DNA of 64,000 nt from Bacillales bacterium UBA743 (lineage in GTDB: Bacteria; Bacillota_I; Bacilli_A; RFN20; CAG-826): NCBI GenBank assembly GCA_002297365.1, contig DBKT01000011.1, positions 210,650 to 274,649 of the forward strand, in the 5' to 3' direction. Below the pieces are notes generated by a model. It was not told where the DNA came from, made no database searches, and worked only from the letters and a program-made list of their open reading frames with translations. Positions 20,842 through 28,087 of the stretch are shown one piece after another. Within the stretch, counting starts at the first letter, position 1, and each line of letters starts with the position of its first letter. A program made the translations under genes and the position numbers.

Positions 20842-21972
20842 ATGAAACTAGAAAATATTAGAGTGGGCCTCACTTATGACGACCTTCTCCTCATCCCCCA
20901 AGAATCCAGCGTCTTGCCAAAAGAAACGAAAGTCGACACCTGCCTCACCAAACGCATCCATCTAAACATCCCAATCCTATCCGCTGCCATGGATACGGTA
21001 AGCGAGCATGAGATGGGGATCACCCTTGCCCGTTTAGGAGGGTTGGCCATCATCCATAAAAACCTATCGATTGAAAATCAAGCAAAAGAAGTCTCGTTAG
21101 TTAAGGAAGCGGATGTTAAAGGCTACCCTAATGCCGCTTTAGATATAAATGGGCGTCTTCTTTCAGGAGCGGCTATCAGTGTCTCTGATAATATGTTAGA
21201 AAGAGTGTCCGCTCTTCTTAAAGCGGGCGTAGACGTGCTCGTTTTAGATTCTGCACACGGGCATTCCAAAAACATCATCGATGCCGTGAAAACAATAAGG
21301 AAACTATATCCAGAGATAAATCTCATCGCTGGTAACATTGTCACAAAAGAAGCTGCAGCCGCTTTAATTGATGCAGGCGTCGATGCCGTCAAAGTAGGTA
21401 TTGGCCCCGGATCTATTTGCACAACGCGTGTTGTCGCTGGCGTGGGTTGCCCTCAAGCCACGGCTGTGGATGAAGTTGCTAGCTATTGCAAAGAAAAAGG
21501 AATTGGAGTCATTGCCGATGGTGGGCTTAAATATTCAGGCGACATTGTCAAGGCACTCGCTCTTGGCGCAAACGCTGTCATGTTAGGATCCATGTTAGCC
21601 GGATGTGACGAAACACCAGGTGAAATCATCGAATCCAACGGAAAGAAATATAAATCCTATGTTGGAATGGGTTCTTTAGCGGCAATGTCCAGAGGCTCTG
21701 CGGACCGTTATTTCCAAGATAAAAACACGGAACAAAACAAACTTGTCCCAGAAGGCATTGAAGGGATTACTTCTTATAAAGGAAAAGTGTCCGATGTCAT
21801 TTATCAACTACTTGGTGGCCTTCATAGTGGTTTGGGTTATTGCGGCGCTCACAGTCTAGACGAGCTCAAAGAAAAAGCCGTTTTCATCCGAGTCACGAAT
21901 AACGGTTTAATCGAAGGGCACCCTCACGATATAAACATCGTGAAGGATGCACCGAATTATCAAAAAAGATAG
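20842..21972 (+). CDS. guaB: IMP dehydrogenase, short form lacking the CBS/Bateman subdomain
   Basis: Catalytic loop [16 protein letters not shown]-specific flap with RY dyad (GSADRYFQ). K+ site GGLxxGxxxxK-like motifs. 376 aa, with no roughly 120-aa CBS pair. SD AAAAGGAG upstream. Confidence 0.85.
21842..21972 (+). repeat. Left copy of a 131-bp direct repeat (the last 43 codons plus stop of guaB); putative attL of the integrated element
   Basis: Nearly identical (4 mismatches) to 25842..25972. Both copies end exactly at the TAG stop codon. Confidence 0.85.
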
Positions 21973-22358
21973 CCTAAGTAAAATCGAATCTTCAAGGCGC
22001 AATTTGCGATCCAATTTGTGGATTCTTGGTTCTTGATGTGGTTATGGGCGTTCCTCCAGCTTAGCACCAGCCCTTAGGCAGAAAAACATGCGCGTCGTTT
22101 CTCTCAACGATATCCCTGCCAATGAGGGTAATAATTTTAGTCCCTAAATCTAATTCCATCTTTTTCCTCCTCCGGGTATTGACGTTATGAATCTGATTTC
22201 CAAATTTTCTTTAGGCTCCCCATACACTTGTGACGATATTGCCTTTTAAAATCGTTTTAGCCTCACATTTCAAGCATTTTTCTTCAAATCCACTAAAAGT
22301 CAGAGTCTTAATCTCCGTATTGGAGAATAGGGATTCCAAATCGTATTTTGATTTAAAG

Positions 22359-23501
22359 TTAAGAGACTTTATTTTTCTTCTTGCAAGATGAGTAAGAGAA
22401 ACCGGGAAAAAGCTTCCTTTGCTTAATAAAAAGTTTTTTTCTTTGATTTAAAGTCAGCGAAGAAATAGACATCTTATCGTCAGGATACTCTTCAAACCCC
22501 GAATCCTCCCATCCGCACACAGGGCATATCTCATGGCTGAGGGCGTCCGGGAAAGTGTGCTCCCCGCAGCATGGGCATTCATGAGGCTCCTTCTCCTCTA
22601 CTTGTGTCTGTATCTCTATCCCCTTTTCGCCTGTTTCGTTTCCTGTCTTTATTCTTCTCTTTTCACCTTTCTTTGGCTCATAGATAAAACTATCATTAAC
22701 TTGATAAAAAGAGACTACATAACCGTTCCGTGTCACAATGACGAGAGTTCCATCACGGACATCATATTTGTAGGTTTTTCCTTTCCAATCCGCCAAATTC
22801 TTCAAGTGTTTATGATCCGATGAGTTCGCAAAACGAACGGCGAAGGAAGCATAATCATCAGGACTAGGAGTGGAAAAATCCGATGCGTTCGCAAAGAATT
22901 GTTCTAGAAGATATCGCTTGTTAAAAGCCTTTGCCAATTTACGAAGATTGTTTTTCGCTTTTGTTTTTCCTTCATTCTCCTTAGGAGCTCTATTTTTTCT
23001 CCCTCTCGGCCTTCCTAAAGGCGAGAAACGGAATTTAGGATTTCGTTTTCTGTGCTCAGTGAACCATGACTTTCTTTCGTTTAGGCTCATACAAAAATAT
23101 GATATTCTCTCATCTGGCTCATCCTCAAACCCCGAATCCTCCCATCCGCACACAGGGCATATCTCATGGCTGAGGGCGTCCGGGAAAGTGTGCTCCCCGC
23201 AGCATGGGCATTCATGAGGCTCTTTCTTTTGGGGTTGCTCGTTATCATATTCCCATTTGGGATTGCCGCGCTTTTTTGCTTTATACCAGGCTTTGTACTC
23301 ATTTAAGGACATCACATTGGATTGCTTCTCTAAATTAGGATTCCGAAATTGTTCAAGGTCGTAAAACCAACCGCAACAGGTGCACTGCAAATCGTTCGGT
23401 GTTTTTCCGTCTTCTATTTCTTCTTCCGAAAGTTTTGTAAAATAAAACTTATGACAGACGGGGCAAAGCATGGGCTTCACCTGTTTTATTTTTTTATCCA
23501 T
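22359..23501 (-). CDS. Cysteine-rich CPCC-type zinc-ribbon repeat protein (three CPCC modules) with a central domain homologous to the adjacent 125-aa ORF
   Basis: Three modules of C-P-x-C...C-P/T-C-C-G-W...ED followed by SLNE(R/Y)K motifs. Two are identical at the protein and DNA level (98-bp perfect repeat). The central about 70 aa (FANSSDHKHLKNLADWKGKTYKYDVRDGTLVIVTRNGYVVSFYQV) aligns with the C-terminus of ORF 23486..23863. Confidence 0.5.
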   Translation of the reverse strand: MDKKIKQVKPMLCPVCHKFYFTKLSEEEIEDGKTPNDLQCTCCGWFYDLEQFRNPNLEKQSNVMSLNEYKAWYKAKKRGNPKWEYDNEQPQKKEPHECPCCGEHTFPDALSHEICPVCGWEDSGFEDEPDERISYFCMSLNERKSWFTEHRKRNPKFRFSPLGRPRGRKNRAPKENEGKTKAKNNLRKLAKAFNKRYLLEQFFANASDFSTPSPDDYASFAVRFANSSDHKHLKNLADWKGKTYKYDVRDGTLVIVTRNGYVVSFYQVNDSFIYEPKKGEKRRIKTGNETGEKGIEIQTQVEEKEPHECPCCGEHTFPDALSHEICPVCGWEDSGFEEYPDDKMSISSLTLNQRKKLFIKQRKLFPGFSYSSCKKKNKVS

Positions 23502-23863
23502 ACTGTTTTCTTCCCCCTTCCTTTTTTAGGAACATAAGTAAAATGATCTGCTATGCGGTAATAAGAAATCACATAGCCTTTTTTATCTATCAATGCTAAA
23601 ACGTGATTTACTATATCATATTTATAGGTCGTCCCATTGCAGTCGACAACGCTCTTAAAATGTTTTCGGTCAACTGTATTGGCAAAATGCACCGCCTTTG
23701 AAACATACTCTTCTGCTGTTGTTGCGCCAAACTCTTTTCCATGATCGTGAAAGTGCCTTTCTAAACCGCCTCGATTAAATCCTTTTGCCCAAGCAAAACG
23801 GATATGCTCTGTTCTTGAACCATTCGTATTTCCGTAGCGAAAGCTAGCTCCTTTAGTTGCCAT
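23486..23863 (-). CDS. Small hypothetical protein; possible BECR-fold (RelE/colicin-like) nuclease-toxin-like domain (inference only)
   Basis: 125 aa, basic. Conserved block FANTVDRKHFKSVVDCNGTTYKYDIVNHVLALIDKKGYVISYYRI shared with the neighbouring CPCC protein. Overlaps both neighbours (translational coupling). Confidence 0.4.
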   Translation of the reverse strand: MATKGASFRYGNTNGSRTEHIRFAWAKGFNRGGLERHFHDHGKEFGATTAEEYVSKAVHFANTVDRKHFKSVVDCNGTTYKYDIVNHVLALIDKKGYVISYYRIADHFTYVPKKGRGKKTVWIKK

Positions 23864-24560
23864 AAGAGTTTACCTCCAAATTTCGTTTCCTTCTTTCTTC
23901 AATGAAGGAATCATAAATATAGAATTCCACAAATTTTTTGTAGTCGTCGATGATGTCTTGCGGAAGATGACCAATAACGATAAAACCTCTTGGTTCTAAC
24001 TTTTGAATTAAAGATAGTATCCAAACTCTCCATTCATATCTCTGTTCTTTGCGTTTAATAAAACCATGTACACCTAATGCAATATAGGTATGTTTCGGAA
24101 AGGCTTGTAGATATTCCTCATCGAGACAATCAGAGCCGCCCCTGCAATTGGGAATCAAAGGAATGCCGTTTTTCCCATAGTAGAAAGATAGTGAAAGATT
24201 GTCGTTCAACTGGGCCTTTTGTTTTACAAGGGGCATGTCAGAATGAACGGAGAAATCAAAGCCAACAATTCCTCCACAGCGTTTGAAGAAACTTAAATAT
24301 CTTTTTGGATTTCTGCGAATTCTCTCAAAAGTTTTATCAGGAGAATAAAAATAAACATAATAATCGCTTAAATCACCGCGATAAGTGATTGCCCTTGAAA
24401 AAGGCATGATTTTTCTTGGTGGAATGGAAGAAATCATCGATTCTTCAAGAATTGGGTACTCCTCGTTTTGAGTGAAATTCGCTCCATCCACCAAGAAAGC
24501 TTGGAACGAGTCTTCGACAATTCCGTCTTTGTTTTTGTACATTAGAATACCTCCTAGCAT
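23853..24560 (-). CDS. Hypothetical protein (235 aa, Cys/His-containing; function unknown), first cargo gene downstream of immA
   Basis: ORF with SD AGGAGG 7 nt upstream of the ATG. No recognisable catalytic motif by eye. Confidence 0.4.
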   Translation of the reverse strand: MLGGILMYKNKDGIVEDSFQAFLVDGANFTQNEEYPILEESMISSIPPRKIMPFSRAITYRGDLSDYYVYFYSPDKTFERIRRNPKRYLSFFKRCGGIVGFDFSVHSDMPLVKQKAQLNDNLSLSFYYGKNGIPLIPNCRGGSDCLDEEYLQAFPKHTYIALGVHGFIKRKEQRYEWRVWILSLIQKLEPRGFIVIGHLPQDIIDDYKKFVEFYIYDSFIEERRKRNLEVNSYGN

Positions 24561-24583
24561 TAAGCCGATACAAATTTGAGACG

Positions 24584-24627
24584 GATATGCTACAATTTAC
24601 TCGGTTAGGTGTGCTTTGTAGCATATC
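24584..24627. promoter_or_regulatory. Perfect 12-bp inverted repeat (GATATGCTACAA-N20-TTGTAGCATATC) between immA and the cargo genes; candidate repressor operator
   Basis: Exact reverse-complement arms read directly. Located about 35 bp upstream of the cargo-gene SD. Confidence 0.45.
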
Positions 24628-24666
24628 TCTAATGCTCTTGTTACTGCGAATAACAAGGGCTTTTTA

Positions 24667-25284
24667 TTAGCGGATTTTCTCAATACGTTTATTGAGCGAA
24701 TCCTTTAATAAACCATTTATAATCGTTTCGTAGCGGACCTCTTTTAAGCCATAGCTAGCTTGAGTTCTGCTTATATTGCGACTGACGATAATATTGGCTT
24801 CCGCCTTCGAGACTTCAAATATTTGGCTAACCATTCCTGTATTAAATAGAGTTTGATCGTTTGGCCTTGTTAAAACAAGAGAATTGGGGGCCAATAGATA
24901 TGTCGCACCAAAATTCGCTTCATATTCATTTCTCTCGTTTTGTTCCGTGTGGCCCAAAATTAAATGGCATATTTCATGAGCCAAGGAAAATCTTTGCCTC
25001 TCTTTGGAACAGCCTACATCATCCAAATAAATAACCGTTTTTTCAGTGAATGGATCAAAATAAAGATAGGACTCTTCAGAAGGGCGTTTATAGTAAACAT
25101 ATCCCTTTGTTGATTTTTTCGGATGTTTTTCGCTTTCTAGAATTAATTTTATGTTCATTTTCTCAACTAAATCAAAGACATTAATAGGGATGCAGTTCAC
25201 ATTATAATCTTCTAAAAGATATGCAATCTTAGTTCGAATTGATTCATAATCCCGACAACATAAACGCATAAAAGACCTCGCCAA
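24667..25284 (-). CDS. ImmA/IrrE-family zinc metallopeptidase (anti-repressor protease)
   Basis: HEICHLILGH (HExxH) motif in a roughly 200-aa protein immediately downstream of, and abutting, an XRE repressor gene. Confidence 0.8.
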   Translation of the reverse strand: MARSFMRLCCRDYESIRTKIAYLLEDYNVNCIPINVFDLVEKMNIKLILESEKHPKKSTKGYVYYKRPSEESYLYFDPFTEKTVIYLDDVGCSKERQRFSLAHEICHLILGHTEQNERNEYEANFGATYLLAPNSLVLTRPNDQTLFNTGMVSQIFEVSKAEANIIVSRNISRTQASYGLKEVRYETIINGLLKDSLNKRIEKIR

Positions 25285-25590
25285 CTAACTTTTTAATATA
25301 TATGCGATAAGCATTTTCTTCTCTTTTTCGCTCATATTTTCAAGGCCTCGAGCAAGAAGAACTTTTCTCTTTGCGAAACTAGGAGCATCCTCCACCTCGT
25401 TTCCGATAAGGTCATCGGTTGTAACGCCTAAAGCTTTAGAAAGATTCGCAACCACGTCAATTCTCGGGGTTCTTTCGCCATTAAGATACTTCGACATGGA
25501 AGCTTCCGTGATTCCGGTTTTCTCTGCCAATTGTTTTTGTGTCATTTTCTTTTCATTCATAAACATTTTGACCCTTTCATTGAATTTCAT
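25285..25590 (-). CDS. XRE-family helix-turn-helix transcriptional repressor (ImmR-like). The preferred start is the ATG at 25590, which has an SD; the ORF track extends to 25617.
   Basis: HTH_XRE signature (QKQLAEKTGITEASMSKYLNGERTP). SD AAAGGAGAAAG 7 nt upstream of the ATG at 25590. Confidence 0.8.
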   Translation of the reverse strand: MKFNERVKMFMNEKKMTQKQLAEKTGITEASMSKYLNGERTPRIDVVANLSKALGVTTDDLIGNEVEDAPSFAKRKVLLARGLENMSEKEKKMLIAYILKS

Positions 25591-25626
25591 GGTTCTTTCT
25601 CCTTTGGTTGTTTTCAACTTGCCATT

Positions 25627-25655
25627 ATTGTAATTTTCATTATTATTATTGTCAA
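25627..25655 (-). promoter_or_regulatory. Sigma70/SigA-type promoter for the immR operon (TTGACA-17 nt-TACAAT)
   Basis: Perfect -35 (rc of 25650-25655) and near-consensus -10 (rc of 25627-25632) with a 17-nt spacer, about 30 nt upstream of the immR SD. Confidence 0.55.
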
Positions 25656-25726
25656 TACGGCATATATTATTTAGGACTGCTAATCTTTAAGTAGACAGCA
25701 CATTACAATTTTGCACGCAAATTGCG

Positions 25727-25972
25727 ATGCTCTGTGAACAAGGGGGCCACGAAGATGAAACTCACGGAAGAAGAAAGGCTCCCAGTCGGAAGAATGCTGC
25801 ACGAAGGGATCCCTCCCAACCCCCGTGGGGGGCTTGCGCTGGCGGCACTCACAGTCTAGACGAGCTCAAAGAAAAAGCCGTTTTCATCCGAGTCACGAAT
25901 AACGGTTTAATCGAAGGGCACCCTCACGATATAAGCATCGTGAAGGATGCGCCGAATTACCAAAAAAGATAG
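25727..25972 (+). pseudogene. Non-functional duplicate of the guaB 3' end (last about 43 codons) fused to unrelated GC-rich sequence
   Basis: C-terminal 43 aa near-identical to the GuaB C-terminus. The N-terminal part is unrelated, and there is no promoter or SD. Confidence 0.5.
25842..25972 (+). repeat. Right copy of the 131-bp direct repeat (duplicated guaB 3' end); putative attR
   Basis: Sequence identity with 21842..21972 apart from 4 substitutions. Preceded by an atypically GC-rich stretch of about 100 bp (25740-25845). Confidence 0.85.
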
Positions 25973-26412
25973 GGTTTATTTACATACAAAGAATTCCCTT
26001 GTCAAAAAGGGCTGCTAATCAATCTAATTGTTTTAAACAGCCGCTTTCTTTCATGTACGAAATGTAGGCGACGGAAAGACGACTCAGGAAACAGGAGAAG
26101 GAATCATCTGTGTGTCATCCTTCAATGATTGTTTGGAAAACAGCATCTAGTCCCGAAGTAAAGAAATCCAAACAAAGCATGTCTTTCTCGTTGGTTTGTT
26201 CTCTTAAGACTTTTTCTTTTTCTTTTTTGGATGAATAAAAATAGGTGCGGAAATCACTAACTCTTAAGAGCGAAGACATCATTTGAGCATTCTTCTTCAA
26301 CCAAAAAATAAACCTTTAAGCGTGTCTTGAAAGTTCTCGCTTGCATTATTCATTCGGAACAAATGATGATCAATAATGTAACGAATAAATCGCTTTTAGA
26401 AGCGCCACGAAC

Positions 26413-27513
26413 ATGTATTCCGTTGGAACCGATGAGGCAGGCGTTTATAAGCACTGGGCTTGGTGCCAGGCTACTATTAGTCAGAAAAAAGAGGGTTTTT
26501 GGCTTTGGGAAAAAACCTATATCGATAAGGACTTTTATTCATTTGATATGGTTTCAACCGGAACTTTGACGGTGACTTTAGAAAACATACCAACAAATTG
26601 TGATTATGATTTAAGGCTCTATCGTTTGGAAGACTCACCGATAGCAAATGTCAAAACCATGAATTTTCAAAACCACATTGCAAAAAGTTCTGCTGCAGGA
26701 AATCAAAACGAAAAAATCGAAGTTTCGGCAAAGCCAGGTACATATTACGCTTGTGTTTATTCGTACGAGGATAGAACATATGACAATGATAACCCATATA
26801 AAATCACCTTTGAAGAAGCCATTGATACCGCTAGAGCGGGATCCCATTACAGCATAAGTGAAGGAAGAAACAATGGTGATTTAGGAGCAATTTGGATAAG
26901 TGACTACGCTCCTTTAGGAATCACTCCAAGCACGATTTATCGTGACTACAACAATAAAACGTGTAGACAAACTTATTCGAATTATGATGACTACCCTTAT
27001 ATAAGGCATTTAGCTGACAAATATTCCGATTGGAAAGACATGACTTATGCAATTCTATATGTATGGGATGTTGAAACAAGAGCAGCTATATATGCCACCC
27101 TTAAGTGCCTGTTAAAAACGATTGATGGATATGGTGATTGGGAAGATTCACAAGAAAGAGAAATGAGTATTTTTTTGAATGAAACTAGTCTTTGCGTTAG
27201 CGTAGCCGGCTTAGCGAGCTGCTATGAAACCAGCAATCCATTCTCAACCAGCAAGGGGCGTTTCCGCGACTATCTAATTAGTATGATTAGTGCATTCGAA
27301 ATTGGAATGGGGAGTAATGACAAAGAAGTCGTCATGATGCGTTTTAAATATCATTTCGGAAGATCAAACATGAGATATGTAGAATGGCTTCCAATGTACG
27401 ATGTTGGCGAAGGTACAAGATATAATAGCGATGCCATATCATTTCAAACGAAAGGAAGCGGAATTGACGGAAGAGTATTTGGATTCAAAAACGAGACGGA
27501 CGTCGAATTCTGA
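26413..27513 (+). CDS. Hypothetical cytoplasmic protein with a PPC (pre-peptidase C-terminal)-like beta-sandwich segment
   Basis: 366-aa ORF. The segment TLTVTLENIPTNCDYDLRLYRLED...GTYYACVYSY resembles PPC-type domains. An in-frame stop lies 8 codons upstream, so there is no signal peptide. Confidence 0.4.
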   Translation: MYSVGTDEAGVYKHWAWCQATISQKKEGFWLWEKTYIDKDFYSFDMVSTGTLTVTLENIPTNCDYDLRLYRLEDSPIANVKTMNFQNHIAKSSAAGNQNEKIEVSAKPGTYYACVYSYEDRTYDNDNPYKITFEEAIDTARAGSHYSISEGRNNGDLGAIWISDYAPLGITPSTIYRDYNNKTCRQTYSNYDDYPYIRHLADKYSDWKDMTYAILYVWDVETRAAIYATLKCLLKTIDGYGDWEDSQEREMSIFLNETSLCVSVAGLASCYETSNPFSTSKGRFRDYLISMISAFEIGMGSNDKEVVMMRFKYHFGRSNMRYVEWLPMYDVGEGTRYNSDAISFQTKGSGIDGRVFGFKNETDVEF

Positions 27514-27529
27514 CTAGGGTTGTAAAGGC

Positions 27530-27805
27530 ATGGAAGAAAAACAGACAATACGAACATCGTCAAATAGAAAAACCATTAGTAGACTAAAGTTTTTAGAAGG
27601 ATGGGTACTGTTACTACCGCTCTTGATTTTGATGTTTTTTGATATTTGGATGATTTTTAAATTGGTATTTGGGCTTCAGACATCCACCATCAGTAATCTC
27701 GAAATATATTATTTAATCATGCTGATCTTTATTTTTCTCTTCTTCTTTATGTTTGTTTTTCCCGACCTACGCAAGGAAAACTCCAAAACAGCACAATTGT
27801 GCTAG
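27530..27805 (+). CDS. Small membrane protein (2 TM), hypothetical
   Basis: 91-aa ORF with two hydrophobic helices. Confidence 0.3.
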   Translation: MEEKQTIRTSSNRKTISRLKFLEGWVLLLPLLILMFFDIWMIFKLVFGLQTSTISNLEIYYLIMLIFIFLFFFMFVFPDLRKENSKTAQLC

Positions 27806-28017
27806 ACCACAGGGTCATTGTCACAGAACGTATACTGCGTTCAAATAATTTTGTTGTGGAAAGACAACCGATTCTTTATATCAAAGAAAGTCGTCGTTGT
27901 TTCAAAATAGGACAAAGCTGGTATTCTTCCTTCATTGTTCCTAAAGAATGCCTCTCCCATGAGCAAAAGGACGCGATACGTAGATTAAAAACGAGAATCA
28001 AAAACGAAAAGAAATGA
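27799..28017 (+). CDS. Small basic hypothetical protein
   Basis: 72-aa ORF overlapping the previous one by 7 bp. No further support. Confidence 0.2.
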   Translation: MLDHRVIVTERILRSNNFVVERQPILYIKESRRCFKIGQSWYSSFIVPKECLSHEQKDAIRRLKTRIKNEKK

Positions 28018-28087
28018 TAAGATTATCATCAAAAAGATCATTCAAAAAAGGCGCACTTCTTACGTTTACAATGTGCGCCTTCTTTGT

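Follow-up and report, generated by a model that had tools for sequence, protein, structure and literature searches.

A five-gene islet without a detectable recombinase, bracketed by a duplicated guaB end in Bacillales bacterium UBA743

This study concerns a 64,000-nucleotide stretch of contig DBKT01000011.1 from Bacillales bacterium UBA743 (called the window below, with coordinates counted from its first letter), in which the end of guaB, the gene for IMP dehydrogenase (IMPDH), occurs twice with 3.9 kb of other DNA in between. Our comparison with related genomes shows that this 3.9 kb together with one repeat copy is an insertion at the guaB 3' end, which is missing from the closest relative. 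The insert carries a cassette of five co-directional genes, all on the minus strand and reading towards guaB, and this cassette belongs to a widespread family of small units found at conserved-gene ends in gut bacteria. As to its arrival, we give roughly even chances to the reading that 21973-25841 is an islet bounded by attachment (att) sites, lacking an integrase and resembling a cis-mobilizable element (CIME), which was placed by a site-specific recombinase that acted in trans or has been lost since. The insertion site consists of the following features.

20842..21972, plus strand: guaB, the target gene, an intact IMPDH of 376 aa without CBS insert (Pfam IMPDH 7.5e-155, full profile)
21842..21972, plus strand: left direct repeat (attL-like), the last 43 codons and the TAG of the intact guaB
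21973..22358, minus strand: left inner flank, 386 bp, in which six-frame reading gives only short dead-looking open reading frames (ORFs) at 22061-22159 and 22211-22339 (minus)
25740..25841, plus strand: GC-rich, scrap-like piece, 60.8% G+C, with a short ORF from 25756; adjoins the orphan repeat
25842..25972, plus strand: right direct repeat (attR-like), an orphan guaB end, behind which the native sequence downstream of guaB continues

The original prediction described a 131-bp duplication of the guaB end with 4 mismatches, both copies ending at the TAG, and the alignment of both regions confirms it. Positions 21842-21972 and 25842-25972 form a direct repeat of 131 nt with 127/131 identity, which was obtained alike by alignment, by the repeat finder (family D2) and by direct comparison. 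The likeness stops at 21841/25841 on the left and right after the TAG of guaB on the right, and the copies differ at 21847 (G/A), 21935 (A/G), 21951 (A/G) and 21960 (T/C). The left copy is the tail of the intact gene and the right one is an orphan fragment. According to the repeat finder this is the sole pair of that sequence within the window, and it is not a dispersed repeat. The repeats are spaced exactly 4000 bp from start to start in the window and 4091 bp in L094, a strain of the same species; therefore the round spacing is a coincidence. Site-specific integration classically leaves such a repeat, one that runs across the 3' end of a conserved gene.

Inside the repeat, at 21926-21943, two perfectly inverted 6-bp arms enclose a 6-nt spacer (CACGAT-ATAAAC-ATCGTG). 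The structure is shaped like a recombinase core site, with one of the four mismatches in its spacer, and the rough chance expectation for it is ~0.1 per 131 bp. The guaB product itself is a short IMPDH without the CBS/Bateman insert, which the NCBIfam IMP_dehydrog model matches in two stretches just under its cut-off. Two other sources of duplicated DNA were rejected: a diversity-generating retroelement is ruled out by the mismatch types (G/A, A/G, A/G, T/C) and by the lack of a reverse transcriptase in the Pfam search, and a transposon or insertion sequence by the lack of a transposase and of shared or inverted termini and by a duplication of 131 bp.

The nearest relatives were taken from a guaB protein scan with one genome per species, and empty sites were checked at the window locus only. 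At the amino acid level the guaB product of the window is 96% identical to that of L005, 93% to L006, 74% to L008 and 76% to L007. In L005 the guaB stop runs straight into sequence that matches the window right after the right repeat and then window 27451-28023, while in L006 and L008 the stops of guaB and of the convergent guaA are ~35 bp apart. The comparison of the guaB-guaA interval that had been proposed thus gives three relatives without the insertion, and therefore the 3.9 kb between the repeats is an insertion. An empty-site junction would join the guaB stop directly to GGTTTATTTACA, and the junction of a circular form would read ...GCTTGCGCTGGC, then the repeat, then CCTAAGTAAAATCG. 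An empty site of the same species was not found among the contigs with an identical guaB or an identical PPC protein, as every one of them has the element or breaks inside the repeat.

The insert had been described as an immR-immA module with three further genes and no recombinase. This stands: Pfam finds a helix-turn-helix (HTH) protein and an M78 peptidase, and no tyrosine or serine recombinase between the guaB repeats, which argues against an integrative and mobilizable element (IME) or a prophage with its own integrase. Likewise, Pfam, PHROGs and NCBIfam reveal no integration, excision or transfer genes among the five cargo proteins. The cargo is composed as follows.

25627..25655, minus strand: promoter-like site upstream of the HTH gene, TTGACA-17-TACAAT, 11/12 consensus positions (consensus match alone)
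25285..25617, minus strand: XRE-family HTH repressor (ImmR/CapH-like), operon gene 1; Pfam HTH_26 and HTH_3, ~1e-14
24667..25284, minus strand: M78 (ImmA/IrrE/CapP-like) zinc metallopeptidase; Pfam Peptidase_M78 7.3e-12, HEICH (HEXXH) motif
23853..24560, minus strand: DUF4417 protein of 235 aa; Pfam 4.1e-22, predicted TIM barrel, nearest to tRNA/DNA guanine transglycosylases
23486..23863, minus strand: T125, a 125-aa protein predicted to be a BECR-fold RNase toxin of the colicin D / CdiA-CT type
22359..23501, minus strand: 380-aa fusion ORF with a CPCC zinc-ribbon module, a degenerate toxin-domain copy and a second CPCC module

Homologues of the DUF4417 protein number 278 at E <=1e-5. Most of the 89 fetched loci with a contig continuing downstream have a T125 and a CPCC gene behind the DUF4417 gene; upstream of it there is usually an HTH and an M78-like gene, and a Fic protein takes their place in one Oscillospiraceae lineage. 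The 42 loci with usable flanks represent 36 different chromosomal contexts, most cassette loci being metagenome contigs of unknown completeness. When the DNA upstream and downstream of the cassette was compared, direct repeats of 48-230 bp were found to bracket it at ~8 of the 36 independent sites. The cases from other loci are listed here with repeat length, identity and position.

L109: 170 bp, 99.4%, from 16 nt before the end of tRNA-Ser
L115: 48 bp, ~96%, from the last base of tRNA-Arg
L141: 214 bp, 90.6%, from 18 nt before the rpsI stop
L166: 186 bp, 98.4%, ending 4 nt past a stop codon
L146: 212 bp, 95%, edge 3 nt past a stop codon
L112: 228 bp, 90%, an end resembling a tRNA 3' half by eye, where ARAGORN finds no tRNA gene
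L172 and L110: 109-146 bp, 76-80%, weaker, iteron-rich cases

The bracketing repeats of different loci are mutually unrelated in sequence, and every one of them extends across the end of a conserved gene: in three cases (guaB, L146, L166) an edge lies 0-4 nt from a stop codon, and in three others it precedes the end of tRNA-Arg, tRNA-Ser or rpsI by 1-18 nt. Between the repeats most units hold the cassette and 60-390 bp on each side, with the exceptions of L112 and L172, which have one extra gene each, and L110, which has a Fic/HTH gene in place of the regulator pair and a truncated DUF4417. Repeats are missing from about three quarters of the cassette sites, and at the sites without long repeats a search for short target duplications gave longest exact shared strings of 10-16 nt, which is the chance level. 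No recombinase was detected by phmmer with nine queries in the repeat-bracketed cassette contigs. Terminal overlaps that would indicate circular forms were present in 0 cassette contigs, and no excision was seen.

The site-specific reading is favoured because the repeats span gene termini that tyrosine-integrase IMEs use, the 3' ends of rpsI, guaA and tRNA genes being documented targets of such elements, and because integrase-less, att-bounded CIMEs and tandem accretion are on record (PMC5704250). The frequency of the repeats was counted in its support as well: against ~8 of 36 cassette sites, direct-repeat pairs of 45 bp or more at a spacing of 2-5 kb occurred in just 3 loci within 1.2 Mb of unrelated guaB loci. 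Of the earlier claim of site-specific integration, the gene-end footprint holds and recurs around the same cassette at tRNA-Ser, tRNA-Arg, rpsI and other gene ends, while an acting recombinase was not found. According to this reading, a circle with a look-alike of the guaB end would have arrived, and a site-specific recombinase, probably of the tyrosine type, would have recombined it with the chromosomal guaB end. The enzyme would have been provided by a co-resident integrative element elsewhere, or it would have been lost since. The outcome would be an intact guaB and an orphan gene end on the far side, and the exit of the islet would need a helper recombinase or homologous recombination between the 131-bp repeats.

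Several observations weigh against this reading. A motif screen and phmmer with nine recombinases (six of them Pfam-checked) detected no recombinase in the 64-kb window, although a very divergent or novel one would escape both; additionally, no helper integrase or integrase-bearing element was found at any guaB end in the searched data, and no conserved element termini or arm-type sites common to the units were found. The original prediction held that the element supplies a replacement gene end, and the mismatches do not bear this out: at 4/4 positions the guaB-attached copy has the base of L005 while the orphan copy deviates, and in L094 no mismatch separates the copies over their 131 bp. The repeats of L109 and L166 are 98-99% identical over 170-186 bp, and such long near-perfect repeats, which include synonymous sites and intergenic DNA, look like a copy of host DNA rather than an imported attP, the attachment site of an incoming element. 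Finally, CapH/CapP regulators are described as divergent from the operon that they control, whereas here the regulator pair heads the operon. As for the two strains, the window and L094 show 9 differences and a 91-bp indel within the 245 bp of 25716-25960, against ~1 single-nucleotide difference per 350 bp elsewhere. That the orphan copy of L094 agrees with its guaB copy points to gene conversion in one of the lineages or to rapid neutral decay in the other one.

One would argue that repeats of this kind come from a Campbell-type homologous insertion, an alternative that we regard as rather unlikely. A non-replicating circle, made of the cassette and a captured piece of the guaB end, would have been recombined by RecA with the guaB end of the recipient, which duplicates the 131 bp; no site-specific recombinase takes part, and conserved genes are favoured for their homology across strains. 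The circle itself would originate from an illegitimate join in a donor with the cassette already behind guaB, or from repeat-by-repeat excision. The identical L094 repeats and those of L109 and L166, which include non-coding DNA past tRNA-Ser, fit this explanation, as do the lack of a detected recombinase, the variable repeat lengths (48-229 bp) without common end motifs and the junction between the GC-rich piece and guaB position -131, which resembles an illegitimate join within unrelated junk. However, random breakpoints would not give repeat edges 0-4 nt from the stop in 3/3 coding-type cases, or edges 1-18 nt before the ends of two tRNAs and rpsI, and the rpsI and tRNA ends are sites of known integrases (PMC5704250). 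Additionally, a fresh illegitimate circle would be needed for each site, yet there are at least 8 sites, and the iteron-bearing repeat arrays in L141, L112 and L172 resemble att sites with arms.

Such arrays also show that the repeats are not restricted to one cargo. In L141 a third repeat copy follows a second unit, an AAA_14/DUF4143 ATPase, and L112 has three repeat copies, the first two of which enclose a surface-protein gene. Two DUF4417 units stand in tandem at the rpsI end of L176 (677-9291) and L178, where they are separated by copies of the last ~50 bp of rpsI, three copies of that end in the case of L176. The tandem arrays of L176, L141 and L112 are the product expected of accretion at one att site. 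A 99-bp repeat at L007 2757-3990, made of the last 68 bp of guaB and the terminator, surrounds an unrelated 1.0-kb cargo with a truncated HATPase_c_4/winged-HTH gene, and L007 is thus a second, independent hit at the guaB end. The other cargos within repeats of the same type are, in all, the AAA_14/DUF4143 ATPase, a YhcG nuclease, the surface protein and the HATPase_c_4 fragment. Since other cargos occur in the same arrays or at guaB, the repeat-making process acts in trans and is not tied to the cassette; it works at gene ends, and repeatedly.

Some further features of these arrays were observed. In one Oscillospiraceae species (L176, L178, L174) units of Fic, DUF4417, toxin and CPCC genes lie at the rpsI 3' end, in tandem in some strains, and no recombinase was found within 8 kb of them. 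Arrays of single-cargo units in L172 (3368-13409), L141 (4341-9543) and L112 (752-8823) have 140-230-bp repeats with short iterons between them, for example GGGGTGCGTAA four times in L172; the layout of these arrays is integron-like, with no recombinase in the contig.

The dispersal of the cassette raises the question of whether it moves itself, with one of its own proteins (DUF4417, CPCC or M78-like) making staggered cuts 50-230 bp apart at gene ends, a new kind of insertion that would give very long target duplications. Nothing but the cassette is constant between the repeats, which consist of local target DNA, differ per site and are perfect in the youngest cases; the 42 loci occupy 36 different sites, and DUF4417 resembles enzymes acting on DNA or tRNA bases. 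Nevertheless we find self-mobilisation extremely improbable: other cargos are bracketed by the same kind of repeats, no cassette protein resembles a transposase or recombinase, conserved termini are lacking, and some three quarters of the sites have no repeats. A broader idea combines the mode of transfer with the function of the cargo. It takes the cassette for a new minimal mobile unit without its own recombinase, which uses the att sites of host elements or its own insertion with duplication of 50-230 bp and which brings along an undescribed transglycosylase-like/RNase defence or addiction system; this combination seems highly unlikely to us.

The islet could also be a plain wreck, a full-size prophage, integrative and conjugative element (ICE) or IME at the guaB end that was deleted down to the regulator pair and the accessory genes kept by addiction. 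In ICEBs1 the gene order is immR-immA-int, and the order of immR, immA and cargo towards the att site mirrors it. The inner flanks, with their dead ORFs and the apparently decaying GC-rich piece, agree with a wreck too, as does the position of the cassette beside integrase or serine recombinase genes at some loci: in L116/L118 (L116 9413-12173) and in the viral contig L182 (5297-8162) it adjoins two large serine recombinases, and in L134 (10522-11694) an arm-binding tyrosine integrase. The serine recombinases of L116 and the tyrosine integrase of L134 were checked by Pfam, while phmmer or ORF reading served for L118 and L182. These adjoining recombinase genes also count in favour of the site-specific reading. 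The cassettes of L116, L182 and L134 lie at the edge of a larger mobile element. Moreover, CIMEs are defined as such decay products (PMC5704250). Still, we judge a wreck to be unlikely. Independent decay would not repeatedly leave the same five genes, flanks of 60-390 bp and both repeats at eight unrelated sites; the 386-bp flank on the guaB side and the 224-bp flank on the orphan-repeat side show no detected remains of genes for integrase, replication, conjugation or phage structure and have no homologue in the fetched loci or in the phage and plasmid records; and a relative of the toxin is present in just 1 of 2.9 million viral contigs (L182). The original prediction had left the choice between an immobilised remnant and a satellite mobilised in trans. 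Its first option is now the weaker one, because random decay would not reproduce the same minimal content at independent sites.

Because the same operon forms a widespread family at conserved-gene ends, the islet is more than a random wreck; how it came to guaB is inferred, and site-specific recombination is the reading we favour. The search of the 3.9 kb against phage records that had been recommended did not lead to a known element: there is no DNA similarity to 50,697 phage or 72,556 plasmid records, and a prophage, plasmid or satellite origin was set aside on these grounds. DUF4417 and the M78 protein have no close relatives in viral contigs. A phage satellite such as a phage-inducible chromosomal island was rejected as well, as the five proteins include no integrase, no replication initiator or primase and no packaging-interference family. 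A phage attP with the guaB end was also considered, and the matches among the phage records had the look of host DNA entered under phage names. The two that were opened, L183 and L184, have chromosomal-looking genes, no recombinase motif and no flanking repeat; L183 has a full-length guaB-sized ORF, and several annotated records of the phage collection list a full IMPDH gene.

The cargo suggests why such a unit may persist. The HTH protein matches the PADLOC capH model (1.7e-16) and the NCBIfam model of RstR-type repressors (6e-18), and the M78 protein matches PADLOC capP (9.2e-11) with partial matches to RmrA. The T125 sequence belongs to no family in any library used, including Pfam, PHROGs, PADLOC and NCBIfam; in its own family K4, K81, H37 and H41 are invariant and K27 is nearly so. 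Its fold matches, like those of DUF4417, were obtained against predicted models, and they indicate that T125 is probably an RNase toxin similar to colicin D and CdiA-CT. The 380-aa ORF matches Pfam Cys_rich_CPCC (4.4e-28) in 3 stretches and contains an internal repeat (22385-22594 / 23018-23227) at 77%. Its middle part aligns to T125, with the invariant His37 changed to Gln and His41 to Asn, and in L086 the equivalent parts are four separate genes. The CPCC zinc-ribbon proteins are probably the immunity or antitoxin partner of T125.

Judging from family and fold similarity, the operon could work as follows. By analogy with related regulator pairs, the M78 protease would cleave the XRE repressor under DNA damage or accumulation of single-stranded DNA and so turn the operon on; derepression would release the transglycosylase-like DUF4417 enzyme and the putative RNase T125, and the CPCC proteins would keep the toxin in check. 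The cargo is thus probably a stress-induced toxin/immunity or defence module, and its likely role is that of a stress- or phage-triggered toxin module for abortive infection or addiction. A toxin module with addiction would hinder the loss of the islet. PADLOC and the defence-system libraries do not contain the cassette, and no functional literature was found on DUF4417. RosmerTA (PADLOC RmrA/RmrT) was considered and rejected, because the partial RmrA matches are split over two genes and RmrT has no match.

The GC-rich DNA of about 100 bp beside the right repeat, which the original prediction had pointed out, is real: 25740-25841 has 60.8% G+C, compared with 38.7% in the remaining insert and 40.4% in the window. 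L094 retains 91 bp that the window has lost between two GGGATCCCT repeats, and differences between the strains are ~10x denser in this piece and the orphan repeat (25716-25960) than in the flanking genes. From its sequence the piece appears to be decaying foreign scrap. Its short ORF has no Pfam match and no plasmid match by tblastn, the peptide of 22061-22159 in the opposite flank, read through its stop codon, has no Pfam match, and an exact 27-mer of the GC-rich piece, used in the search for a parent element, is absent from the viral and metagenome collections. An RNA element was discarded, as there is no Rfam match at gathering or relaxed thresholds and folding equals that of shuffles (z 0.25, -0.24). 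A relic of an IS3-type transposase was discarded too: the longer ORF of L094 resembled the N-terminus of an IS150-type OrfA, an impression that stayed unverified as Pfam and the plasmid tblastn came back empty.

The surroundings of the islet are variable as well. A PPC-domain gene (26413-27513) and a dead ORF (26115-26300, minus) in window 25995-27450 are absent from L005, no repeats were found around this second insertion, and the guaB-guaA spacer is entirely missing from L006 and L008. Therefore the spacer took several independent insertions. Two ORFs of 91 aa and 72 aa (YcxB-like) at 27530-28017 correspond to a single 169-aa ORF in L005 (11359-11868), and the YcxB-like gene thus appears to be frameshifted in the window genome. 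Records with the closest guaB relatives (L006, L007, L077) bear the implausible names Escherichia coli, Alistipes communis and Roseburia hominis; these are probably mislabelled bins, since all share the low-GC gene order.

Integrase-less, att-bounded islets are usually dismissed as wreckage, whereas here one compact operon is found at dozens of sites. This suggests that small cargo units can live by riding on homologous recombination or on the integration machinery that other elements provide. The guaB end joins the list of gene-end hot spots, and an uncharacterised five-gene module is defined by an ImmR/ImmA-like switch, a DUF4417 enzyme of predicted transglycosylase-like fold, a colicin D-like candidate RNase and a CPCC protein.

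Our islet has to be compared with several known systems. Its regulator pair is like ImmR/ImmA of ICEBs1, DdrO/IrrE and CapH/CapP in that an XRE HTH protein stands beside an M78 HEXXH peptidase. The genes of the CapH/CapP pair reportedly lie upstream of the defence operon under their control, on the opposite strand (bioRxiv 10.1101/2022.04.27.489752), whereas here the pair constitutes the first two genes of the operon and is replaced by a Fic protein in one lineage. The T125 model matches the BECR fold, in which helices precede a curved beta sheet, of colicin D and CdiA-CT tRNase toxins (PMC3482391; PDB 8ey4, 1tfk, 5znm). In contrast to these, T125 is free-standing and cytoplasmic, has no delivery domain and no Pfam family, and occurs in every case together with DUF4417; a CPCC zinc-ribbon protein is its presumed partner, and the survey PMC3482391 has no mention of 'CPCC' in its text. 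DUF4417 is predicted to have the TIM barrel of tRNA guanine transglycosylases and of the DNA 7-deazaguanine insertase DpdA (PDB 1iq8, 6fv5, 7ui4), but it shares 8-11% sequence identity with them, is about half their size and has no deazapurine synthesis genes nearby.

IMEs and islands with tyrosine integrases target the 3' ends of guaA, rpsI, rplL, rpmE and tRNA genes (PMC5704250). The islet uses the same class of target with the same gene-preserving duplication, and the rpsI and tRNA ends are used by its sister units (L141, L176, L109, L115); the guaB end has 0 occurrences as a target in the IME review PMC5704250. Unlike IMEs, the islet has no integrase, relaxase or replication gene, its size is 3-4 kb and its repeats are unusually long and near-perfect. 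The closest resemblance is to the CIMEs of streptococci (PMC5704250), which likewise have attL/attR-type repeats at the 3' end of a conserved gene, lack integrase, excisionase and transfer genes, and form tandem arrays of related units at one site, as in L176 and L141. As to mobilisation by the integrase of a related ICE or IME, these arrays at rpsI are no more than suggestive. They differ in that no cognate ICE or IME was found for the islet and that its flanks are without recognisable ICE or IME relics. A CIME is by definition the decay product of an ICE or IME (PMC5704250), whereas the minimal operon of the islet recurs at many different att sites, and this recurrence suggests a unit that travels as such.

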